DNA from: Candidatus Hermodarchaeota archaeon
GTDB taxonomy: Archaea; Asgardarchaeota; Thorarchaeia; Thorarchaeales; Thorarchaeaceae
DNA: 14,198 nucleotides
Assembly (NCBI GenBank): GCA_048885865.1
Contig: JBHLLF010000019.1
Coordinates: 1-14,198, forward strand
Direction of reading: 5' to 3'
Shown here: in pieces, positions 1,498 to 12,863 of the stretch
Position numbering within the stretch: position 1 is the stretch's first letter
Layout of the letters: each line of letters begins with the position of its first letter
Notes under the pieces: generated by a model
What the model saw: only the letters and a program-made list of their open reading frames with translations
What the model was told of the DNA's origin: nothing
Database searches by the model: none
Program-made: the position numbers and the translations under genes

Positions 1498-1683
1498 GAG
1501 CTTAACTCATGAGTTTGGCTTTCATCCTGTTCCTTCCTTTGGCGTCTCAAATCAAAACCAATCATTTCGTTTTCGAGCGCTATAGGGGAAGATGGACACT
1601 GACAAGAATGAAAGGAGGAAGAATGGAAGGAGTGTAACCAGCAGGCTTATCTCTTCCAGAAGCGGTGAGTTGCTGAACGCAGT

Positions 1684-2601
1684 ATGGACCTACTAGATAA
1701 GAGGATTCTAACTGAACTGACGAGAAACTGTAGAATAACCTACCAAGAGCTCAGCTCAAAGATAGGATTGACAGCTACTGGAACTAGGAAACGGGTTGAG
1801 AATCTGATAGACGATGGTACATTATACTCGTTTTCAATCCGTCCCACATTGAATTCAATGAATGCGGATATTGCTATCGCACTCGTAGAAACAGACGGTC
1901 AAGAATCCCCAGCTGATTTTCTCGAATCATTTGGAGAGAATGAAAGCGTTGGAGAAGTCAATCCCATTGCTACAAAGGATGGCGGTTTCTACTTGGTAAT
2001 CTCAGATTATATTGGCGCCAACGGCATTATCAACCTTGGAAGCTTTCTTAGAACGCTAGATTATGTTGAGAAGGTGGATATGCATTCTGTAATCACAGAT
2101 CCACAATATCATGGCAATTCTGTTGAATTCAAGCCACTTGAACTCAGGGTAATGAAGTATCTCACCCAAGATGCTCGGATGACAGTTAGTGAAATATCTG
2201 AGAAATCAAATCTTACAGTAAGACGAGTTAGAAACATCCTAAAGAAACTACAAGAAGATGGGGGAGTCAACTTCTTAATACGGTGGAATACTGCAGCCGC
2301 AGGAGCAGTTCGATTCTTCCTTCCTATTGAATACAATCCAAAGGATACAAACCATGAGGATTTGATTAATTGGCTCTTCGATGCATATCCGAAGGAGTTC
2401 TGGCTCTATTGGATTTCAACAAATAAACCCCTGATCTTTGCAAGTTTTACTGCTGAATCGATTGAAGAGGCTAGAAGAATATCTCTAGAGGTGCAGGAAA
2501 ATTCAGTGGTATCCTCAGTTGAAACTTGGATATGTTATCCACCGCGCAAGTTCAAGACCTATCCCGAAAAATGGTTGGAAGAGAAGCTCAGCCAGATATG
2601 A
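1684..2601 (+). CDS. Tandem (two-module) Lrp/AsnC family transcriptional regulator
   Basis: Two AsnC-type HTH segments (DLLDKRILTELTRNCRITYQELSSKIGLT... and LELRVMKYLTQDARMTVSEISEKSNLT...), each followed by a RAM-like region. Divergent from the CPBP gene. Confidence 0.9.
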   Translation: MDLLDKRILTELTRNCRITYQELSSKIGLTATGTRKRVENLIDDGTLYSFSIRPTLNSMNADIAIALVETDGQESPADFLESFGENESVGEVNPIATKDGGFYLVISDYIGANGIINLGSFLRTLDYVEKVDMHSVITDPQYHGNSVEFKPLELRVMKYLTQDARMTVSEISEKSNLTVRRVRNILKKLQEDGGVNFLIRWNTAAAGAVRFFLPIEYNPKDTNHEDLINWLFDAYPKEFWLYWISTNKPLIFASFTAESIEEARRISLEVQENSVVSSVETWICYPPRKFKTYPEKWLEEKLSQI

Positions 2602-2667
2602 GATCAATTCGATCTATTCGCATAGTTCCCAGATGCATTCATTACAATGCCCAAATTATGGTAGATG

Positions 2668-2689
2668 GAGGGTGAACCGAATCACCCTC
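2668..2689. other. Perfect 8-bp hairpin in the intergenic region
   Basis: GAGGGTGA-accgaa-TCACCCTC. No adjacent U-tract, function unknown. Confidence 0.35.
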
Positions 2690-2859
2690 GTATGCCAGAA
2701 ATACAGGTTCATGTTTCCTAGAAATTCGAATGCTCTGTAGTATCAAAAAGGGGCACTTAGTAACCTTGAAAAGCGCAATCCTGACTGAGTCGCGCTATAT
2801 TTAGAGATGCAATTTAGGGAAGAGTGGATGTTTATGAAGACGCTATTCGGGTGACGCGC

Positions 2860-3804
2860 ATGAGCAAGAGGAAATACATCAGGCAATACAAATGGTCAAA
2901 CGTTTATGCAATGATGCGAGGTGGAGGAGGGGAACTAAAAGAATGCACTGATGATTTCGAAGGACGCTTGGTGGTCATCACAGGTGCAACATCAGGAATT
3001 GGGTATGTAACTGCAAGAGAGTACGCCTCACATGGTGCAAACCTCCTTGTAATTAATCGTAATGAAGAAAAGTCGATTGCCCTATGTGAAGAGATCCGCC
3101 AGGAATTTCAAGTAGAATGTGATTATAGGATTGCAGATTTTTCACGATTATCTGAAATGCACAAGGTTGGAAAGGAACTTCTGGAGTCAGACTTAGACAT
3201 CGATGTTCTTATCCATAATGCTGGTATCTATTCAACGAAAAAGATAATCACTGAAGATGGCCATGAGCTGGTCTTTCAAGTAGATTATCTTGGGTCTTTC
3301 GTCCTGAATTATATGCTGAAGGATAAATTGAAAGCAAGAGGAAAAGCACGCATCATCTTTGTTAATTCAGAAGGTCATCGATTTGCTGTTTGGGGCATAG
3401 GACTGCATGACCCTACATATGAAAAACGTAGACATTCAGGTTTAGGGAGTTATGGTGTAGCGAAGACAGCCCAGCTTCTTTCGATGATCAAATTTGCTGA
3501 ATATTTCGAAGGGAGCGGCGTGACCATAAACGCGATGCACCCAGGAACTGTCAAAACCAATACTGGTTCAGACAATGGTCGAATATACCGTTGGTATAAG
3601 AGAAACTTGGTCGATCGTATCTCCAAAGATCCGCAAATATCTGCAACAGCGCTTTATTATCTGGGCGTTTCCAAGGAAATGGATGAAATAAGTGGCAAGT
3701 TCTTCAATCTAACAAAGGAGGAAGAACCCGCACCTCCAGCATTAGATAGGGAGGTAGCGGAGGAGCTTTGGTACAAATCAATAGAAATGGCTGGGTTGGA
3801 ATGA
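2860..3804 (+). CDS. SDR family NAD(P)-dependent oxidoreductase (retinol dehydrogenase-like)
   Basis: TGATSGIG Rossmann motif, HNAG, YGVAK (YxxxK), MHPGTV. The ATG at 2860 has a GGTGA RBS 5 nt upstream, so it is preferred over GTG at 2824. Confidence 0.9.
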   Translation: MSKRKYIRQYKWSNVYAMMRGGGGELKECTDDFEGRLVVITGATSGIGYVTAREYASHGANLLVINRNEEKSIALCEEIRQEFQVECDYRIADFSRLSEMHKVGKELLESDLDIDVLIHNAGIYSTKKIITEDGHELVFQVDYLGSFVLNYMLKDKLKARGKARIIFVNSEGHRFAVWGIGLHDPTYEKRRHSGLGSYGVAKTAQLLSMIKFAEYFEGSGVTINAMHPGTVKTNTGSDNGRIYRWYKRNLVDRISKDPQISATALYYLGVSKEMDEISGKFFNLTKEEEPAPPALDREVAEELWYKSIEMAGLE

Positions 3805-5399
3805 GCGAGAGCAATCATAGAACAGTTATTGTTGGCGGGGGAATGGCAGGCTTAACAGCTGCCGTGTATTTGTCAAGAGCTGGACATGACGTCCTTTTGC
3901 TAGAGAAGAACAAGGAATGCGGCGGGCTCCTCAACTCATTTGATCGAGACGGATTCACCTTTGATGCAGGTGCAAGATCAATACTGAATGCTGGAATAAT
4001 TCGACCTATGCTAAATGAACTAGGAATTGAGCTTGAATTTCTTGATAGCCCTGTATCAATAGGAATCGAGAATGATATCATCCCTATGACTTCGCAAACT
4101 GGCTTGGATGACTACAAGCGATTGCTAGAGAAGTTATATCCTGAAAGCATCAATGATATCGACAAAATCATCTCGAAAATTGAGAGAATTAAGAAAGATA
4201 TGGAGATTCTATATGGTATTGATAATCCCTATTTCAGGGATATGAAAAGCATAAGCTATCTCCTCAAAGAACTCCTTCCTTGGTTTGGAAAATTCATATT
4301 TGCCTTACGTCGAATGGGCAAAAACAACGAACCTGTTGAGTCCTTTTTGGAAAGACTGACTTCAAATCAATCCCTCATCGACATCATCGCTCAGCATTTC
4401 TTCAAGAAGACACCGACATCTTTCGCCTTGGGCTACTTCTATGTATACACTGATTATATCTATCCAAAGGGAGGTACAGGTCAATTACCGAAGGCGCTAG
4501 TGGGAAAAATCATAGAAGAGGACGGAAAGATTCAGAACGATACTGAAATTACCGAAGTCAATCTAGCTGATAAGAAGTTGAATGATAAGGATGGTAACGC
4601 GTATTCATATGATACTCTCATCTGGAGCGCAGATTTGAAGACATTGTATCGAATACTAAAAACCCAGAGCCTGGGAGAGGAGGATACTCAAAGAATCATG
4701 GAGCAGAAAGATCTGCTACTATCAAAGCGCGGATGCGATTCTATCTATTCATTATATGTTGGTGCAGATATCCCCCTGGAATCCTTTGGTTCTATTTCTA
4801 ACGGGCATTTCTTCTATACCCCGACGAGAAGAGGTTTGGGTGAGATTCATTGGTCCGAGCTCGATTCTTTGATCGAGAATTTTGAAACCAAATCAAGGGA
4901 AGAAGTTTTGCAATGGTTGGATAAATATTGTCAATTGACGACATATGAAATATCGATTCCCGCACTCAGAAATGCCGCATTAACTCCCGAGGGAAAAACG
5001 GGCCTGATAATAAGCATGCTATTTGAATACGATTTAATCAAAAAAGTCAGGGATGCCAACTGGTACGATGAATTCCGAGTCGAGGTCGAAACCCGAATGT
5101 TGGATACGCTTTCGAATTCCATCTATCCAGGTCTGAAGGACAAGGTGCTCTTTCAATCATCTGCAACCCCACTCAGTATTGAAAAGATTGCAGGAACTTC
5201 AGAAGGAGCTGTTGTAGGGTGGTCATATTTATCACCCGTCCCTGTTGTAGACAGTCTCCGAAAAATGTCAAGCTCAGTTAAGACGCCGATTCCAAACGTA
5301 TACCAAGCAGGCCAATGGGCTTATAGTCCAGCGGGAATACCTACTGCAATCCTTACGGGCTGGCATGCTGCGCAAAATGTAATGAAGACCAAGAAGTGA
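3801..5399 (+). CDS. NAD(P)/FAD-dependent oxidoreductase, phytoene desaturase (CrtI)/retinol saturase-like
   Basis: IVGGGMAGLTAA...LLEK...GG..FDAG dinucleotide fold, YPKGG, C-terminal NVYQAGQW..PAGIP. ATGA overlap with the SDR stop suggests translational coupling. Confidence 0.88.
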   Translation: MSESNHRTVIVGGGMAGLTAAVYLSRAGHDVLLLEKNKECGGLLNSFDRDGFTFDAGARSILNAGIIRPMLNELGIELEFLDSPVSIGIENDIIPMTSQTGLDDYKRLLEKLYPESINDIDKIISKIERIKKDMEILYGIDNPYFRDMKSISYLLKELLPWFGKFIFALRRMGKNNEPVESFLERLTSNQSLIDIIAQHFFKKTPTSFALGYFYVYTDYIYPKGGTGQLPKALVGKIIEEDGKIQNDTEITEVNLADKKLNDKDGNAYSYDTLIWSADLKTLYRILKTQSLGEEDTQRIMEQKDLLLSKRGCDSIYSLYVGADIPLESFGSISNGHFFYTPTRRGLGEIHWSELDSLIENFETKSREEVLQWLDKYCQLTTYEISIPALRNAALTPEGKTGLIISMLFEYDLIKKVRDANWYDEFRVEVETRMLDTLSNSIYPGLKDKVLFQSSATPLSIEKIAGTSEGAVVGWSYLSPVPVVDSLRKMSSSVKTPIPNVYQAGQWAYSPAGIPTAILTGWHAAQNVMKTKK

Positions 5400-5407
5400 T
5401 TCTAGTT

Positions 5408-6112
5408 TCACTGATTACGAGCAGCAAGATACGCCTTGTTCTCTCTTTCAATCGCTTCCTTATGAGTGGTTAGTGGAGCTGAAATTGCATCCAGGAGCTT
5501 TTGGGTAACGGTCCCTGATTCGACTATTTGGATACCTGCTTCCTCCGCAGCTGCATAGACCTCTTTCGCTAAGCTCTCTTGATATTTCAAGCGAGATGCA
5601 TGGGGTCGTAGAATAGGCCCAATGAAATCAACACCTGAATTATCAGCAATCTCTCGAGCAATATGTGTGACAACCTCGAAGTTTCCTATTTCAAACCACC
5701 CCCCACTGGACACGAATACAATCTTTGAGATGTTAACATTATCGTGAAACTTGGCTCGTGTTCTATCATTCTTTATCTCTAACAGAGGTTCGACGAGAGG
5801 CATTAATCTGTTCAGAAGATTCTGGAAATTACCCGGTAAGGGCAGGTAGATTGGAGTTGCAAGAACAAGTATGTCAGCTTCTCTTGCCTTTGCATATACC
5901 TGCTCCATATCGTCAGTATGAATACATACTCCTACTTTCTCATACCAACATTGGAAGTCTCCAATGCATGGTCTTATCTTCAGATCCTTTGAAAAAAGCA
6001 AGTCTACAGTTGCCCCTGCTTTCCTCATCCCTTCAAGCAATGGACCGAGTATCAAGTGGGTGTTTCCCTTTTCCTTATTCGGACTCCCATTAATTGCTAA
6101 TACGTCCGTCAT
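5408..6112 (-). CDS. Flavodoxin family / NADPH-dependent FMN reductase (iron-sulfur flavoprotein-like)
   Basis: INGSPNKEKGNT FMN-binding loop, CIGDFQCW...C..DDM cluster-like motif, ADILVLATPIY. Confidence 0.88.
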   Translation of the reverse strand: MTDVLAINGSPNKEKGNTHLILGPLLEGMRKAGATVDLLFSKDLKIRPCIGDFQCWYEKVGVCIHTDDMEQVYAKAREADILVLATPIYLPLPGNFQNLLNRLMPLVEPLLEIKNDRTRAKFHDNVNISKIVFVSSGGWFEIGNFEVVTHIAREIADNSGVDFIGPILRPHASRLKYQESLAKEVYAAAEEAGIQIVESGTVTQKLLDAISAPLTTHKEAIERENKAYLAARNQ

Positions 6113-6210
6113 GTCACATCCCTAACCAATCCTGATTGAGACCTGTACTGATGTAAGAAGATTTCTATCCGGAGGGGAGAAATATAACCTGCACATCCAG
6201 GTCTGTGTGT

Positions 6211-7473
6211 CTAGGATGAAAAATGAATCATTGAAAACTGATTTCTTCTCATCTTGATTACTATAGTGAGCACAATCAAGCCTGCGATGATGGGGATTGA
6301 AACACCAAGATAGCTGTAGAGCAGTGATGGTGCCGTATTACTAGTGGTGGGTTCGCTAGTCGGAGTGGTTTTGTAATCAATAGCTGACCAATTGAGTCTA
6401 AATGAATTTGCTGAGGGAACAAATTCCGCTAGATAGGCGCGAGCTTTTTCAATATTCAATGCGCCATATCCCGATTTCTCATCCCATCCAATGTCAAGCA
6501 TGTCTGTAGCACCCCAAACCAACGCATCTTCAATTTGACTGTTTGATGCCCATGGAAACTGATTCCAAAGGAGAACAGCTGAAGCTGCAGCTATTGGAGT
6601 GGAACAGGATGACCCTCCAAAGGTGCCATAATTGCCTGTGGTCTGCATATATGCAGGCACGCCACCTGCTGGAGCAACCAGAAATAGCTGGTCGCCATAA
6701 CCACCTTCATTGTATGTGCCAGTTCTATCAACTCTTCCAATAACTCGAACATATGGCAACGACTGAGGCACATCCTTTGGATGCAGCGGATATAGAGCAT
6801 TATCACATCCGGCGAAGAAGAGTGCCTCTCCATTTTCATATAGCTCTGAGACCTTATTCTGAAGTTCAACTAAAATCGGATCATCGAAGTCAATCAAATA
6901 CACTGTGGCAAGAAAACTCATCGTAAAGACCATTCTTCTGAAGCTCGTACCCCAATCGAATATGTCTATCAATTTCTGCATGTATATTCGATACGAGGCA
7001 ACATCCTCAACAGGATAGGCACCCCAAGGCCATGCACTATACAACGGAGCGTTTACGATTCCTGCCACACCTACTTCGTTGTTTATTGTGGAAGCAGCTA
7101 CGGATGCAACCGCTGCTTCATGAGAACTTGAGCTAGAAGTTGGATAAGGCAAGTATGAAGTAGAACTGCTATCCCATGAGAAACTGGCCTTTGCTGTTAT
7201 ATTCAGGTCTCCATTTTGATCATTAATAATAGCCTCCCCGACTACACATAGCCCAATAGCATCAGGTGAATTGAAAGAATAACCATAGTCCCAGACGCTG
7301 TGTATCTTAATGGCATCCAAATGCCAAGGGTCACCTTCAGGGTCGTTCGGAATGAATCCCTGAACAAGAAGGATATTTCCAAACAAATGGGCAATGACCA
7401 AGAATATTATTGCACTCATAAGAGCGAATGATTTTGAGAAATGGGACTTCGAGATTGCTACCTTATTGCCCAT
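6211..7473 (-). CDS. Membrane-anchored S8 (subtilisin-like) serine peptidase with atypical catalytic motifs
   Basis: N-terminal hydrophobic signal, PND..WHLDAI, SHEAAVASVAA (His motif), FGGSSCSTPIAAA (Ser motif), GWDEKSGYGALN, T/S-rich linker and a C-terminal TM with basic tail. ATG at 7473 (MGNK) is preferred. Confidence 0.8.
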   Translation of the reverse strand: MGNKVAISKSHFSKSFALMSAIIFLVIAHLFGNILLVQGFIPNDPEGDPWHLDAIKIHSVWDYGYSFNSPDAIGLCVVGEAIINDQNGDLNITAKASFSWDSSSTSYLPYPTSSSSSHEAAVASVAASTINNEVGVAGIVNAPLYSAWPWGAYPVEDVASYRIYMQKLIDIFDWGTSFRRMVFTMSFLATVYLIDFDDPILVELQNKVSELYENGEALFFAGCDNALYPLHPKDVPQSLPYVRVIGRVDRTGTYNEGGYGDQLFLVAPAGGVPAYMQTTGNYGTFGGSSCSTPIAAASAVLLWNQFPWASNSQIEDALVWGATDMLDIGWDEKSGYGALNIEKARAYLAEFVPSANSFRLNWSAIDYKTTPTSEPTTSNTAPSLLYSYLGVSIPIIAGLIVLTIVIKMRRNQFSMIHFSS

Positions 7474-7536
7474 GTCCAACAACCCAGATGAGAAGGAATC
7501 ACGGACATACTGGAAATTAAAAACACTCATCAAAGC

Positions 7537-7675
7537 AATAGAAAGAATGGAAGGAGGGGCGACGGGTGCACCCTTGCAGGGTGTGTCAAATGCGGCCTAT
7601 TCGTTTACAGCCGCACCTTCATCCGCCGCCAGTCACGAGCTCCTTCCTGACTATCTCGCGACACTCCCCGTCATC
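7537..7675 (-). repeat. Repeat copy R1: duplicated vhuU 3' end + intact variant SECIS + GCAA hairpin + pyrimidine tract
   Basis: 7617-7675 is identical over 59 nt to 11369-11427. The distal part shares AATAGAAAGAA, GAAGGAG and GCACCCTTGC with R3. Confidence 0.93.
7585..7622 (-). promoter_or_regulatory. Orphan eukaryote-like SECIS element (in R1)
   Basis: Minus strand: AUGAA-GGUGCGGCU-GU-AAA-CGAAUA-GGCCGCAUU-UGAC. Same 38-nt geometry as the vhuU SECIS, with a 9-bp stem fully paired (WC/GU). Confidence 0.75.
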
Positions 7676-7771
7676 ATAGATAAGCCGGACTGAATGAAAT
7701 ATAGGCTTAAATGCGTTCAAGTGGTGACACGATGAATGTTTAATCTAAAGAATATATGAGGATTAATAACA

Positions 7772-8584
7772 ATGCCATTTTTTGACAATGAAGGAGTTAG
7801 AATATATTATGAAATCGAAGGGGGAGGGCCACCTGTAATAATGATTCATGGATTTGCCGCAAATATCGAAGCTAATTGGAAAGCTACTAATTGGGTAGAT
7901 GTTCTTAAGGATGATTATAAATTGGTACTTGTAGATTGTCGTGGGCACGGGAAAAGCGACAAACCTAAAGATCCTGCTCAGTATGGAGAAAAGATGAACG
8001 ATGATATCGTTAAATTGCTTGATCATTTATCTATTGAGAGGGCTAATTTCTTCGGATATTCTATGGGGGCACGAATGACTACAGATATTTTGCTTCAAAA
8101 GCAAGAACGCTTCATTAGTGCTATTATTGGAGGATTCCCACTCTACTATCCTAAAAGAAGTACAAAACTCATGGCTAAAGTAATGATGAAAAGATGGATA
8201 AAAGGTTTAAAAAAAGCAAATCTTGATGATGTCAACGATAAAGCAGCTTTAAGATTCCGAAAGACAATTTCAGAATATCCTGACTCTCAATCACAAGATC
8301 TTGAAGCTTTAGTTTATGTTTTGGAAGGGGATATTCAACGTCCGGATGGTATACTCCCAACTGATCCCGAAAGGAAGAAAGCTCTTAGAAAAGTCAATGT
8401 GCCAGTTATGGCCGTTTACGGAGCTGATGACGATGTTATTAAAAGAGGTAAATCCACAGGAGCTCAATTAGTACCAGGTTCTTGTCAATTCCAAATCGAA
8501 GGAAAAGACCATATTACTGTTGTCGCAGATCCCAAATTTCACATGGTCGTAAGAGCTTTTTTGGACTACGTAAACAAGAAGTAA
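7772..8584 (+). CDS. Alpha/beta fold hydrolase
   Basis: HGF oxyanion motif, DCRGHGKS, GYSMG nucleophile elbow, GADDD acid and KDH His. Visibly AT-rich. Confidence 0.92.
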   Translation: MPFFDNEGVRIYYEIEGGGPPVIMIHGFAANIEANWKATNWVDVLKDDYKLVLVDCRGHGKSDKPKDPAQYGEKMNDDIVKLLDHLSIERANFFGYSMGARMTTDILLQKQERFISAIIGGFPLYYPKRSTKLMAKVMMKRWIKGLKKANLDDVNDKAALRFRKTISEYPDSQSQDLEALVYVLEGDIQRPDGILPTDPERKKALRKVNVPVMAVYGADDDVIKRGKSTGAQLVPGSCQFQIEGKDHITVVADPKFHMVVRAFLDYVNKK

Positions 8585-8701
8585 TCCAATACCGATTTTT
8601 TGGATTAATTCACCTAAAGGAAAATTCCATAATGCTATACCATTGTATAGAGCAGGTTATATTCAGTAATTCTTAGGTTGCCCAAAGTCTTATTGAAAAA
8701 A

Positions 8702-8826
8702 GAGAAAGGATGGAAGGAGTGACAGGCACGCGCCTTTGCAGGGCCGTCCAACCCAGACCATGTCTTTACGACTGGGTCTTTGTTCGCCGCCCATCATGAG
8801 CTCCTTCCTGACTATATCCCGACACT
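8702..8826 (-). repeat. Repeat copy R2: diverged vhuU 3' end + degenerate SECIS + GCAA hairpin + pyrimidine tract
   Basis: Aligns with R3. In the vhuU frame it reads CRDIVRKELMMGGEQ versus CREIVRKELVTGGG*. The SECIS core AUGA is mutated to ACAA (8780-8783). Confidence 0.9.
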
Positions 8827-11160
8827 GCGCCTTCTTCTCAAAATCAGAAATCCAGTAGCAATAGCAACAATAACTACTAGAATTCCTGAGTAGACCAATC
8901 TAATTGATTGAAGTCCTATTGGCTGTGCCATTTGAACTGCTATTTCTAATTCTGATAGCATTCCAAATATCGATTGCAGAGAATCATAGTAATTACTGGG
9001 ATTACTGACATTCACGTAATGTGTGATGCTTTGGTGTAGATCTTCAGCCGCTTCCATTAAGAAACTGTATATTTCAGGATATTCTTCTTGTCGATTACCT
9101 GTTGAAGCAACAACGAAGTCCATTGTGCTGACTGCTTCTTTCCAATATTGTGGAATGAAACCTCTCTGGAGCGTATCAACGTCAAACACTGAGAGATGGT
9201 GACAGCCGTCCTGAGCGTAGCTCATAAGACCATATGGGAACGCCCACAACCAGTGTTCATTCCATGTCCACTCCATTCTACTGGACGGATGATCATAGTT
9301 GCCCCAGGAAAATGCATCATGTGGGTGCCTTAATCCTAGAGCATGACCCGCCTCATGCATGGTGACATGAGTAAAGCCCAAAGTCCTATCCACATATGCT
9401 GAAATGGCTGCATCAAAACTTGGAGCAATAGTTCCGTTATCTTCAAAGACGATGTGGTACTGTCCATGGATACGAATAGGAACTGAAACCGACACATTAC
9501 CTGAGAGAGTTGATAGGCTATCAAGCGTGTTATTCAGAATTTCAGTAAAGGATAGCGATTGTGTATATCTTTGGTAGTTATATTCATCAAGAAAGAAAAC
9601 TTTCAAGGTGCCTTGATTTACTACAACTGACAATTCAGCGTTCATATGAGTGTCCCCGATATTTCCTTCGAGTCCAAGATATTCTAGAAGATCAATGTGC
9701 TTTCCTTGAGGGATTTCACAATCAGTAGCAACCAATTTCATATACCTGAAAGCATGTTCTGGATTCAAGGAAGCTGCCTCCTGTCGTACTATGAGAAAGG
9801 CATGCGCGCCTGCACTATTCGTTATCTCTCCACTTGCGGAAGGATCAAAGTCCCAACCTGCTGGAAGTGCGAATAGAAACTCTCGGATTACTAGTTGCTC
9901 TGGGGTTGTAGCATTGAACAATGAAGTGTATCGGTTAAGCAAATATTGGACAATCCGTTCCCGATCATAGGTATGAGCTTCAGAATTGGTGCTGTCTTGG
10001 AGGATTGATGCAAAACCAGAATCGGATTCCCAATCCCATTCAGTGAGAGAATAAGTCCAATCGATTTGAGGATTTACTTGTTTAAACTCAGAAACTATGT
10101 ATTCACAATCGAGACTTGTGCGGAGGTCATAATCCGTGGGATCGAGATCTATAGTAAGTATTTCGAACTTCACTTCTTTAAACTTGGAAATACTCTGATG
10201 ACTGGTTCCATAGAGTGGTAAATAATAGTAGGAAGGCAGAAACTTACATTCCACCGCCTTAGCAATATACTTGACCAAATCTTGGGTGAGTGCTTCTTGG
10301 GGATTAGTTCTATCTTCATATGTCCAAATGGGCGGAACATTTTCCTCAGTCACACTGTTCACAGTAGGTGTCGCGCCTAGGGGAGGACCAGTGTAATAAG
10401 TTGGACCCGCTGAGAGGTCCAGCCACAGCAATCGAGACTGCTTCCCACCTCCAGCGATTTGATAGGTTGATTGCCAAGGCATTGAGATGGAGGTGTACCC
10501 GTTAATCTCAGCATCTATCTCATTCTCTGATGCATTATAGTAATAGGGATGATGGCCGGCTGGGTCGAATGAATAGGTGTCTATGATGATCAAAGTGGGA
10601 GTAGGGTCAGAAATGATGTTCTCGGTGATATAGGCCTCAATAAGACTTGAGGGAGCGTAGTAAGCCCTAGGGTGGTCCAGATTGATAAACCAAGGCGAGC
10701 AATCCTCCCTTGAATTTTCATAAAGATAGGACCGATAGCCTTGGACATGGCTTAGACCAAGATATGATATGTCATAAGACAATGAGAAATTCATATCGTA
10801 GATCAATTGGTCTAATAGGGCATAATGGAGTGTGCTGATTGGCGCATACCATTGTGGGAGAGCACCAACAAGTGAGTCCTCAGAGATTCTTGTTTCATCA
10901 ATACCCAAGAATACTACATTGATATCATAATTCATGTGTTCCGGGAGGACTGGCAAAGTGAAAGATTCCTGAGCTGCATCAAGGTCTCTATATTCTGTTA
11001 GTGCGGTCGAATCCGATGGCTTAATGCTAGTAGGTGAACTACTTTGAGTTTCGGATGCAAGGGCTGCAAATCCGTTCGTAAGCAGAAGAACAATGACAAC
11101 TGTGGCTAAGATGATCTTGCTCGAATCTTGAGCTTCTAGGTTTGGAAATCCCATAGACAT
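8812..11160 (-). CDS. Large secreted, C-terminally anchored zinc metalloprotease (metzincin-like)
   Basis: HEAGHALGLRH (HExxHxxGxxH) followed by a GLMSY Met-turn. Signal-like KIILATVVIVLLLTNGFAALA and a C-terminal TM plus RRRR. Start uncertain (11232, 11160 or 11154). Confidence 0.8.
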   Translation of the reverse strand: MSMGFPNLEAQDSSKIILATVVIVLLLTNGFAALASETQSSSPTSIKPSDSTALTEYRDLDAAQESFTLPVLPEHMNYDINVVFLGIDETRISEDSLVGALPQWYAPISTLHYALLDQLIYDMNFSLSYDISYLGLSHVQGYRSYLYENSREDCSPWFINLDHPRAYYAPSSLIEAYITENIISDPTPTLIIIDTYSFDPAGHHPYYYNASENEIDAEINGYTSISMPWQSTYQIAGGGKQSRLLWLDLSAGPTYYTGPPLGATPTVNSVTEENVPPIWTYEDRTNPQEALTQDLVKYIAKAVECKFLPSYYYLPLYGTSHQSISKFKEVKFEILTIDLDPTDYDLRTSLDCEYIVSEFKQVNPQIDWTYSLTEWDWESDSGFASILQDSTNSEAHTYDRERIVQYLLNRYTSLFNATTPEQLVIREFLFALPAGWDFDPSASGEITNSAGAHAFLIVRQEAASLNPEHAFRYMKLVATDCEIPQGKHIDLLEYLGLEGNIGDTHMNAELSVVVNQGTLKVFFLDEYNYQRYTQSLSFTEILNNTLDSLSTLSGNVSVSVPIRIHGQYHIVFEDNGTIAPSFDAAISAYVDRTLGFTHVTMHEAGHALGLRHPHDAFSWGNYDHPSSRMEWTWNEHWLWAFPYGLMSYAQDGCHHLSVFDVDTLQRGFIPQYWKEAVSTMDFVVASTGNRQEEYPEIYSFLMEAAEDLHQSITHYVNVSNPSNYYDSLQSIFGMLSELEIAVQMAQPIGLQSIRLVYSGILVVIVAIATGFLILRRRRSVGI

Positions 11161-11286
11161 GATAATCACGTGAACTATGGAATACCTGAATATCAGAACT
11201 CGTGAACTCCCTAGTTGGTTTTTCATATTCATGCTTGATTAAATTCCCGAAAAACCAACCACACCCTTTGCTTTTGTGCAAATTCA

Positions 11287-11427
11287 AATAGAAAGAAAGG
11301 ATAGAAGGAGCAAGACTGGCGCACCCTTGCGGGGCTGTCCAACCCAGTCCAAGTCTTTGCGACCGGGTCTTCATCCGCCGCCAGTCACGAGCTCCTTCCT
11401 GACTATCTCGCGACACTCCCCGTCATC
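11287..11427 (-). repeat. Repeat copy R3 (resident): vhuU 3' end + SECIS + GCAA hairpin + terminator tract
   Basis: Native copy overlapping vhuU. Outer stem GAAGGAGC..GACUGGCG / CGCCAGUC..GCUCCUUC, then CCUUUCUUUCUAUUU. Confidence 0.93.
11337..11374 (-). promoter_or_regulatory. Eukaryote-like (Asgard-type) SECIS element of vhuU
   Basis: Minus strand: AUGAA-GACCCGGUC-GC-AAA-GACUUG-GACUGGGUU-GGAC. It has a UGAN/NGAN kink-turn quartet, a 9-bp stem and apical AAA, and lies 92 nt downstream of the in-frame UGA. Confidence 0.85.
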
Positions 11428-11535
11428 GTCTTCCTCGACCACGACGAAATGAGCGCCGCATGATAGTCAGCAGTCGTAGCACCGCACAACCATCTCAACG
11501 AGGTTGAGCAGTCCTTCCGGTATTTCTTCAGTCAT
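11371..11535 (-). CDS. vhuU: Selenocysteine-containing hydrogenase peptide VhuU (split C-terminus of the large subunit), 54 aa
   Basis: Manual translation gives MTEEIPEGLLNLVEMVVRCYDC-U(TGA 11469-11467)-LSCGAHFVVVEEDDDGECREIVRKELVTGGG*. It carries the DxUxxCxxH L2 motif missing from vhuA, has a GGTGTG RBS and starts 11 nt after the vhuA stop. Confidence 0.93.
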
Positions 11536-11546
11536 GTTTCACACCA

Positions 11547-12863
11547 TTATCTCTTCACCATAGGCTCTGGGAGCTTCAAGCTCTCGTGAGCCTTGTCTTC
11601 GAAAATCTGTTTAGCTGCGACCATGAGAGACTTCTCTATGCCCGCAATGTTGTTGTTAGTGGCGACGACGAGGTTCGCCTTGGTGAGGATCCCCTCGTCG
11701 TCTGAGATGTAGTTATGCATGAGAATGCCTCGAGGCGCCTCCACAATACCTACTCCATCACCCGCTTTAGGTTCCACATTGGAGAGTTTTACATCTGTGC
11801 TGACAATGTCGGGATCTTTGAGCAAAGTGGCAATCCATTCGAATGCCTGTACTAACTCCACAATCCTTGCATAGTGATATGCAAAGGTATGGTGTGAAGG
11901 TCTACCTACCAGCTCTCTCATTTCCTTAAGCGCCGCGTCTGCCAGAGGAGTTGCCATCCTTTCATTGACATTGCATCGGGCGAGGGTGTTTGCACGCCAG
12001 ATGCCGCCGGGGTATCCTGCTGGCTTATAGTACATGTGAGTTGCATAGCTGTGTTTCGCTACATGTTCACCATAGTACTTTGTGTAGTCCTTTGGCTCGA
12101 AATCTGCAACTATTTTGCCGCCTGGCTCTTGCACTCGTACAGTACCATCATAAATATCAAGTTCTCCTTTGTTTGAGAGACCTATGTAATAGGTTGGTAC
12201 TACAGCGACCTTTGTGATCACATCCAGATAGTCTGTTACCACCTTCTTTGCAAGGTCGACTGTATTTAGTGTAAGTTGCTGAATCTCTTCGAGTCGTCCA
12301 ATGAAGAAGTCTCGGTCTTCCTCCGCCATTGATGTTAACATTCCACCGGGAATTCCGGTAGTCGGATGGACAGCTTTTGCACCGATGGCTCTGATTAGCT
12401 CTTGACCGAACTCCATCATTTTGATTGCTTGAACAGCTACGTCAGGTAGGTCTCTCAACACGGCCGCTACATTTCTATCCGCGGGGTTTGCAAACGGCCC
12501 ATATACAAAGTCAGGAGCGGCAAGTGCATAGAAATGGATTGCGTGCGACGAGAACTGCTTTGCCTCTATCATCAACCTACGTAGTTTGATTGCAGCAGGC
12601 GGAGGCGTAATATCCCATGCCGCCTCAACAGCCTTGATTGATGCAAGATGATGAGGAATCGGGCAGATGCCGCAAATTCTGGGAGCAATCCGTGGAGCCT
12701 CCTCCATGGGGCGTCCCTCTAGGAATTTCTCAAAGAACCTCGTGCTATTCACGTTGAATTGCACATCTTTGACCTTGCCATCCTTGCCTAGTTTGAGTGT
12801 CAATGAGCCGTGACCTTCGAGTCGAGTCACTGGATCAATTCGAATGGTCTTTTCTTCTGTCAT
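11547..12863 (-). CDS. vhuA: F420-non-reducing [NiFe(Se)] hydrogenase large subunit (group 3c), lacking the C-terminal L2 motif
   Basis: IDPVTRLEGH, RFFEKFLEGR, RICGICPIPH (L1) and VEAPRGILMH are present. It ends ...PMVKR with no DPCxxC. Confidence 0.93.
   Translation of the reverse strand: MTEEKTIRIDPVTRLEGHGSLTLKLGKDGKVKDVQFNVNSTRFFEKFLEGRPMEEAPRIAPRICGICPIPHHLASIKAVEAAWDITPPPAAIKLRRLMIEAKQFSSHAIHFYALAAPDFVYGPFANPADRNVAAVLRDLPDVAVQAIKMMEFGQELIRAIGAKAVHPTTGIPGGMLTSMAEEDRDFFIGRLEEIQQLTLNTVDLAKKVVTDYLDVITKVAVVPTYYIGLSNKGELDIYDGTVRVQEPGGKIVADFEPKDYTKYYGEHVAKHSYATHMYYKPAGYPGGIWRANTLARCNVNERMATPLADAALKEMRELVGRPSHHTFAYHYARIVELVQAFEWIATLLKDPDIVSTDVKLSNVEPKAGDGVGIVEAPRGILMHNYISDDEGILTKANLVVATNNNIAGIEKSLMVAAKQIFEDKAHESLKLPEPMVKR

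Follow-up and report, generated by a model that had tools for sequence, protein, structure and literature searches.

A gene array at the SECIS-bearing end of vhuU in a Thorarchaeota genome, possibly the product of gene-end displacement

The window, the whole stretch of 14,198 nucleotides that was analysed, belongs to a genome of 3.58 Mb (G000; 87% complete, contamination 5.3%). It carries vhuA, vhuU and, behind them, accessory genes separated by copies of the vhuU end (Table 1). The vhuA product matched NCBIfam VhuA with an E value of 2e-144, under the curated cut-off, and vhuA is 68–99% identical in relatives. The stop TGA of vhuU sits within the SECIS core, and a tRNA-Sec was found on contig C4. 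The first cargo protease has an HEXXHXXGXXH motif, with weak matches to Pfam M10/M12, and takes its final codons and stop from R2 sequence. The hydrolase cassette is of a Lokiarchaeia/Hodarchaeales type, with a GC content of 36% as compared with 46% for the genome. Exact-protein look-ups found neither the hydrolase nor VhuA on record. The pyrimidine tract is referred to as a putative terminator; a sigma-70 promoter/terminator scan was uninformative.

Table 1. Positions of the features of the vhuU array in the window.
Feature	Position	Strand	Remarks
vhuA, F420-non-reducing hydrogenase large subunit	11547..12863	-	conserved upstream anchor
vhuU, 54-codon selenoprotein	11371..11535	-	Sec TGA 11467-11469 (codon 23)
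R3, native vhuU tail + SECIS + 4-bp side hairpin + pyrimidine tract	11287..11427	-	SECIS at 11338-11374; allele linked to metzincin
Cargo 1, 806-aa metzincin-type protease with C-terminal membrane anchor	8812..11232	-	
R2, decayed copy, AUGA core lost	8703..8826	-	
Cargo 2, inverted alpha/beta hydrolase cassette	7676..8702	+	gene 7772-8584
R1, 59-nt tail identical to native + intact SECIS, different allele	7537..7675	-	
S8 protease, follows R1	6211..7533	-	
Probable fourth eroded copy, pyrimidine-tract end only	1610..1646	-	

The three direct copies of the vhuU tail in the original prediction are real. All lie on the minus strand, with identities of 82.5% over 143 nt for R1/R3 (E 6e-31), 81.7% over 126 nt for R2/R3 and 71.3% for R1/R2. 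BLASTN and a profile of 33 native units gave no further copy in the genome; with zero copies beyond contig C19, a dispersed repeat or MITE was ruled out. The longest exact match between copies, 59 bases common to R1 and R3, is shorter than the 77-nt overlaps between contigs of this assembly, indicating that the repeats are not an assembly artefact. A separately assembled contig, possibly from the same sample, spans 8510-11398 with zero differences. One gene per interval, as predicted, holds between R3, R2 and R1; the third block has five genes if it is closed, as is probable, by the terminator-side remnant of a fourth copy. The match of this remnant is weak (E 0.07 locally). It is present in the congeneric genome G015 too, and its motif occurs six times in the genome, four of them at this locus in one orientation.

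A SECIS had been predicted in every copy. R3 and R1 fit the Asgard eukaryote-like SECIS (AUGA, 9-bp stem, A-rich 11-nt loop, GA after the stem), but R2 has lost the core and fails these criteria. Among 15 sequences, 94% of stem cells were paired and five of the nine pairs showed compensatory change. The stems of R1 and R3 differ in sequence and both are fully paired. The SECIS assignment follows from this covariation and not from whole-unit folding z-scores, which were weak except for R1; an Rfam search gave nothing relevant. The passages of two Asgard SECIS papers that concern VhuU describe a lokiarchaeal element of the same build, in which AUGA is the stop and is followed by a 9-bp stem, an 11-nt A-rich loop and GA (Mariotti et al., 2016, PMC4989117; Huang et al., 2024, PMC11227280). 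For Lokiarchaeota VhuU.1, a stop TGA inside the SECIS core has been published as well (PMC4989117). Those passages describe no stranded SECIS copies or cargo arrays (PMC4989117; PMC11227280).

Relatives supported the prediction of repeated gene capture at the vhuU end, as both content and order vary. The first gene after vhuU belongs to nine different families at 18 loci in two genera. An empty state, vhuU-SECIS-S8 protease, was found in three genomes (G004, G081 and G097), while S8 has been displaced from first position in G000, G015 and G090. G015 carries the same two cargo genes in opposite order, in modules 96–98% identical to those of G000. The metzincin follows vhuU or one of its copies in G000, G015 and G010 only. 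G020 carries the hydrolase cassette too, there upstream of a corA-like gene and flanked by 13-bp direct repeats; its ends are the same at the two sites, as is its orientation relative to both anchors. Excision joints were sought in assembled contigs of public runs. The X5/X6 contig joint 7636-8798 (metzincin-S8, no hydrolase) matches the G015 order and was rejected as independent support because it may derive from the samples of G015 itself. Joints 7673-11438, 7636-11299 and 8721-7600, which may reflect repeat mis-mapping or the G015 order, were likewise set aside as evidence of circles.

The 5' edge of a copy goes with the preceding gene, and its SECIS allele goes with the following gene. The SECIS part of R3 is identical to that of G015 copy B, likewise upstream of the metzincin, and the SECIS part of R1 to that of G015 copy C. 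R2 has its 5' edge in common with copy C and its 3' edge in common with the native G015 copy A. The closest native allele to R2 is that of G008 (83%), and those closest to R1 are in another genus (86%). Copies within a genome are not mutual nearest relatives, and alleles are common across genera. The prediction that incoming units each bring a working SECIS allele was supported. Exchange points differ: those of R1 and of copies B and C in G015 fall in the tail/AUGA region, that of R2 on the terminator side. A module consists of a donor allele of the vhuU end, SECIS included, followed by cargo and the start of the stranded copy. Such modules are gained, lost and re-ordered as units via crossovers within the repeats, across genera too. 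R1 is read as the displaced older gene end, linked to S8.

The 59 bases that R1 shares with R3 could also stem from a tandem duplication of the gene end at this site with later decay, or from mis-assembly of mixed strains; the samples contain several strains, and contamination of G000 stands at 5.3%. Against this reading are the two stems, which differ, are fully paired and are closest to alleles of other genomes, the contig support over 8510-11398, and the presence of both cargo-repeat junctions of G000 in G015, an independent genome. This reading is largely refuted, and we regard it as highly improbable.

Homologous recombination on the conserved tail, offered originally as an alternative, fits best. 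We consider it somewhat probable that the array arose through the cell's general recombination, with a conserved gene end being displaced each time. DNA from a relative would pair in vhuA/vhuU, bringing its own version of the gene end together with the gene that follows. The donor would then be joined to the recipient within the old tail, by a homology-anchored illegitimate join or by a single crossover with a small circle, and the old vhuU end would be stranded behind the new cargo. If a native end then recombined out of register with a stranded copy, two one-cassette alleles could be stacked in either order, which would yield the arrangements of both G000 and G015. Selection would preserve the first copy, since vhuU requires its SECIS, and later copies would erode from the 5' side, with the pyrimidine-tract end mostly kept.

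The same two-step displacement model has been proposed for Rhs tips (Jackson et al., 2009, PMC2935791) and for Vibrio cholerae T6SS effector/immunity arrays (Kirchberger et al., 2017, PMC5361080). There, as here, a new unit enters a conserved 3' region and the old end is shunted downstream as a variable-length fragment, no integrase is involved, and homologous exchange spreads the finished arrays. The vhuU array shows features expected of an Rhs-type process, with stranded fragments that vary in length and copies closest to the alleles of other strains. In Rhs and V. cholerae, however, a toxin tip is fused into the anchor protein within one gene family, whereas in vhuU-type arrays, which occur at many loci, whole unrelated genes stack up behind housekeeping genes left intact, behind RNAs and behind promoters.

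G000 carries at least 12 further arrays, at tRNA, 16S rRNA and protein-gene ends and at promoters, none with a SECIS. Across the arrays, relatives included, the duplicated stretch measures between 13 and about 250 bp, many repeats being just 13–40 nt, and shared modules in relatives terminate at the repeats. In relatives, 34 downstream vhuU copies, all direct, start from -60 to +54. The SECIS appears to be a passenger and not the recognition signal, as 19 of these 34 copies begin past its core and the other arrays lack it. The proposal that the SECIS is a special att-like site was accordingly not supported, the variable exchange points also being at odds with it. A retro-copy model, with fixed 3' and ragged 5' ends, was dropped because no reverse transcriptase was found and promoter-side arrays exist.

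The absence of a recombinase near the array, noted originally, extends to all of G000 as assembled. No match to PF00589, PF00239, PF07508 or PF16795, nor to PF02371, PF01797, PF01867 or PF00078, was found in this genome, at 87% completeness, where absence is not proof; DDE transposases lay outside the search. These families cover Y1, IS110, tyrosine and serine recombinases, Cas1 and reverse transcriptase. PF00589 is also absent from G015 and is present in just 8 of 23 high-quality family genomes. Transposons, casposons and retroelements fit poorly, as no enzyme of these families was found and the duplications are not short and uniform.

Some edges are fixed. In three genomes, about 20 copies of the ACAD-type tail have their starts within about 16 nt of a single point, and those of the tRNA-Ala type begin at the T-loop, a starting position typical for sites of tyrosine integrases. 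The longest vhuU copies cluster at -43 to -60 (P 0.03 in a rough simulation), others starting at -78, -18 and -4; the spread of shorter starts may reflect erosion, since copies behind one nucleotidyltransferase start anywhere from -3 to +46. Fixed starts at the ACAD and tRNA-Ala types, which random joins would not give, count against displacement, as does the clustering at vhuU. They favour site-specific accretion, in which the anchors are attB sites of a virus or plasmid with a replacement gene end in its attP, and the cassettes are decayed or captured CIME-like remnants that move when an integrase passes through. CIMEs are defined as recombinase-less relics retaining att sites (PMC7563491), a definition that such remnants would suit. 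A tyrosine recombinase is present in 29 of 86 family genomes, many decayed, and in G023 the distance between such a recombinase and an eroded ACAD-type tail is 1.2 kb. Homologues of the G023 enzyme, 84–91% identical, occupy unrelated places in other genomes and are often broken, which counts against accretion. Accretion would also call for at least a dozen different integrase specificities, with promoters as the targets of several. It also sits poorly with the variable exchange points within the vhuU repeat and with 33 vhuU loci, from draft genomes, in which no integrase or relic was found. A custom integrase profile had no match in any array locus fetched, and the vhuU, ACAD and tRNA-Ala tails had none in IMG/VR, searched with three exact patterns only. 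We regard accretion as possible but doubtful.

Streptococcal CIMEs resemble the vhuU array in recombinase-less cargo, direct gene-3'-end repeats, tandem stacking and a restored target, but derive from ICEs/IMEs with integrases at the same sites (PMC7563491). At vhuU the direct 3'-end repeats and restored target are present, but no cognate integrase-bearing element was found and exchange points vary. The additive islands of Ca. Actinomarinales have small cassettes closed by a target-end repeat, cross-genus exchange and few mobile elements, but use tRNA targets only (PMC7771536), whereas here a protein-coding gene whose end holds a recoding signal serves as an anchor, in addition to rRNA, protein and promoter anchors. 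Integrons share one-gene cassettes, front insertion, re-ordering and a cargo stop codon within the repeat, and the reversed order in G015 and the displaced S8 correspond to such re-ordering and front addition. The parallel with integrons drawn in the original prediction nevertheless fails on integrase and attC features. There is no IntI, the repeats are locus-specific copies of a host gene end, cargo genes point either way and have a 5' region of their own, and by inspection no RYYYAAC/GTTRRRY pair of attC core sites is conserved in the aligned copies.

Three further observations weigh against displacement: the shared hydrolase cassette ends at vhuU and corA, the many 13–40 nt repeats, which are short for RadA, and the failure to find Rad52 or a bona fide DprA in G000, where the DprA-like match is a TIGR00725 protein. 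A dedicated, unrecognised Thorarchaeota machine that captures defined-end DNA and places it at the edges of many conserved genes, duplicating 13–250 bp of the target, would accommodate the precise edges at some anchors, the dozens of copies spread over more than 12 anchors in each genome without a known recombinase, and one cassette with the same ends and relative orientation at two unrelated anchors. We consider such a machine decidedly unlikely, as no candidate gene was identified and the edges of different anchors have no common motif by eye. The shared hydrolase end could be due to a weak microhomology of the corA 13-mer with the vhuU Asp-Asp codons, and foreign SECIS alleles show ordinary homologous exchange to be responsible for much of the process. 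Stated more broadly, as an undescribed Thorarchaeota capture system that places defined-end genes at gene, RNA or promoter edges and re-orders them with no known recombinase, the idea is still unlikely. The vhuU array would then be one site of that system, which would incidentally carry working SECIS elements to places beside unrelated genes and from one genus to another.

We found no published description of this type of array. Although tyrosine recombinases are mostly missing from this Asgard lineage, it acquires, stacks and shuffles accessory genes, some of them from other Asgard classes, at predictable addresses. New selenoproteins have been proposed to arise by SECIS acquisition (PMC11227280). 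Stranded intact SECIS copies behind unrelated genes offer a concrete route for such births, although no cargo gene here has an in-frame UGA. The SECIS alleles also act as natural lineage tags that separate donor from recipient.

Sequence comparison confirmed the three direct copies of the vhuU tail, SECIS and pyrimidine tract that had been proposed in the window (R1 to R3, R3 being the native vhuU end). They are 71–83% alike, with E-values as low as 6e-31, and neither BLASTN nor a profile built from 33 native units detected the unit outside this locus in the 3.58-Mb genome (G000), which belongs to the Thorarchaeota. Mis-assembly is unlikely: the longest exact repeat between copies is 59 nt, a contig spanning 8510-11398 shows no differences, and the congeneric genome G015 has both cargo-repeat junctions too. 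A weak fourth remnant at 1610-1646 closes a five-gene block (1610-7533) of S8, flavodoxin-like, amine-oxidase-like, SDR and AsnC genes. Several of these families reappear behind vhuU in genus g5, in differing orders, so the array probably reaches the contig end.

Coordinates of the repeat copies, of vhuU and of related features (C, contigs of G000; L, loci fetched from relatives; strand and positions of unprefixed entries are those of the window)
Feature	Location	Strand	Remarks
R3	11287-11427	minus	direct copy
R2	8703-8826	minus	direct copy
R1	7537-7675	minus	direct copy
vhuU	11535-11371	minus	codon 23 is an in-frame TGA; terminates at the TGA within the AUGA core
Array	C14		3' end of a 413-aa gene, about ten copies; also promoter side of that gene, there and on C110
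Array	C21		16S 3' trailer
Arrays	C54/C51/C61 and C23		tRNA ends
Further arrays	C13, C56, C42, C20, C106, C27, C16, C50		
Small ORF + nucleotidyltransferase	L049:710-1288; also L042, L061, L064, L071, L072, L074, L068, L037		
Tyrosine recombinase family, usually broken	L259:7566-8555; L263, L264, L265, L267		

As originally predicted, gene content downstream of vhuU varies among relatives. The window reads vhuU-R3-metzincin-R2-hydrolase-R1-S8, whereas G015 has the reversed order vhuU-A-hydrolase-B-metzincin-C-S8 (A to C, its vhuU copies), with modules 96–98% identical to those of the window. The native vhuU is directly followed by S8 in G004, G081 and G097, and in the genera g1 and g5, 18 loci have nine different gene families in first position. 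The commonest first cargo, found in four genera, is a toxin-antitoxin-like pair of a small ORF and a nucleotidyltransferase; in G014 a stranded AUGA core provides the TGA at which this cargo stops. The 5' edge of a copy goes with the preceding gene (R1 and B share the hydrolase edge, R2 and C the metzincin edge) and the SECIS allele with the following one (R3 equals B ahead of metzincin, R1 equals C ahead of S8, both 100%). R2 is the exception, its likeness to copy A beginning only at the pyrimidine tract, a pattern that places a second exchange point. Copy A is 92–93% like g5 natives; R1 is 86% like them and only about 77–80% like R3-type alleles. Judged by their sequences, vhuU-end alleles cross genus boundaries, which excludes local duplication of the vhuU end. 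Comparison of these loci shows that whole units have been gained, lost and re-ordered; the exchanges lay inside the repeats and brought in donor alleles of the gene end. The copy of the vhuU tail and SECIS that terminates a 77-kb contig of G015 (C8; L036:9555-9659) is identical to the native allele of G014, and a g5 contig (L076) terminates at the same bases.

The VhuU motif (window 11453-11478) is RCYDC-U-LSC, with an additional Cys ahead of Sec; the usual motif is DP-U-xxC. tRNA-Sec is present in G000, and compensatory changes back both the SECIS stem of 9 bp and a side hairpin of 4 bp, support that the shuffle control overstates because the sequences are related. R1 has an intact SECIS with a stem sequence unlike that of R3; R2 lacks the AUGA core and supplies the metzincin stop codon. 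The vhuU stop within the core has been published for Lokiarchaeota (PMC4989117).

The proposal that the SECIS is a special att-like capture site was not supported. Profile search of 210 kb of sequence following native vhuU genes gave 34 hits (E up to 1), all direct and none inverted. Thirty of these end at +76 to +90 from AUGA, an end point set in part by how far conservation reaches, and 19 start 15–54 nt beyond AUGA and therefore lack the SECIS core. Repeat detection found at least 12 further arrays of the same design in G000, on unrelated anchors; ACAD, uS19, mvhD, uvrB and rpl13e are putative anchor names, the repeats themselves having been tested. Modules common to G000 and relatives span repeat to repeat. 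On the evidence of these copies, the SECIS is not the recognition signal.

The window had been described as devoid of a recombinase, and family profile searches of G000 were likewise negative for recombinases of the tyrosine and serine types, archaeal integrases, IS110 and Y1 transposases, Cas1, reverse transcriptase and Rad52. With a Thorarchaeota-integrase profile, neither G000 nor the array loci yielded a convincing match; the best in G000, at E 7e-4, was compositionally biased. PF00589 was absent from the array-rich G015, G020, G035 and G084. It was present in 29 of the 86 genomes of the family and in only 8 of 23 good ones (absent from 15/23 high-quality Thorarchaeota); by this test Thorarchaeota seem to lack a core XerA, an absence unusual for archaea. 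In G023 an integrase lies close to an eroded tail of ACAD type, but it proved to be one of a tyrosine recombinase family, 84–91% identical across several genera and usually broken, whose members lie at unrelated loci.

On balance we lean towards a mechanism in which donor DNA would pair in vhuA/vhuU and enter, the incoming DNA would be joined inside the recipient's old tail, and stacking would follow, through out-of-register crossover or through small circles that are excised and re-enter; each of the two routes yields both observed gene orders. For Rhs tips (PMC2935791) and for V. cholerae immunity arrays (PMC5361080) the same model has been put forward. Sharp edges at some anchors resist it: the starts of the ACAD-type copies (about 20, in G000, G015 and G020) all fall from -134 to -118, tRNA-Ala-type copies start at the T-loop, and long vhuU copies gather at -43 to -60 (P about 0.03, crude simulation). 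Ragged short vhuU copies may reflect erosion. The hydrolase cassette resists it too, being found upstream of a corA-like gene in G020, G095 and one metagenome contig, flanked by direct repeats of 13 bp (or 9 bp) and with ends matching those at the vhuU site (89% over 7677-8678). These edges and ends keep alive a visiting integrase, under the CIME definition (PMC7563491), which we regard as improbable, and a dedicated system of undescribed kind, which we consider less probable still.

In its working the vhuU array resembles integrons and Rhs loci, yet it belongs to neither group. Cassettes with direct repeats of the target end are known to accrete at tRNAs (PMC7771536) and also at streptococcal gene ends; our verdict is that the array is real and a variant form of known gene accretion. 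Asgard mobile elements described previously (PMC8813620, PMC11529989) carry integrases, and such arrays are not described there; no description of these Thorarchaeota arrays was found in open-access full texts. The interest lies in the genome-wide pattern without a recombinase, rather than in the SECIS.

The hydrolase gene is 88–91% identical in DNA to Lokiarchaeia and Hodarchaeales genes. In G020 (L055:9100-10900) it forms, with a YdeI-like gene, a second small array between corA-like and GTPase genes; a YdeI-like gene, 79.5% similar, lies in the G000 16S array (C21:34662-35233). A Hodarchaeota homologue (L141:3356-5489) is placed between 427-bp direct repeats, 84% identical, that hold a whole 75-aa gene. 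Summed contig depth over the hydrolase region (window 7740-8580) was 10–40 times that of the flanks in two runs, the excess being contributed by numerous related alleles of AT-rich organisms. Elsewhere, short ORFs with the same repeated peptide in G019 (L047:3848-5690) point to a CRISPR array some 12 kb downstream of vhuU, and G000 encodes very large repetitive proteins of 2779–6554 aa (C7:55300-64500, C8:35000-85600, C34).
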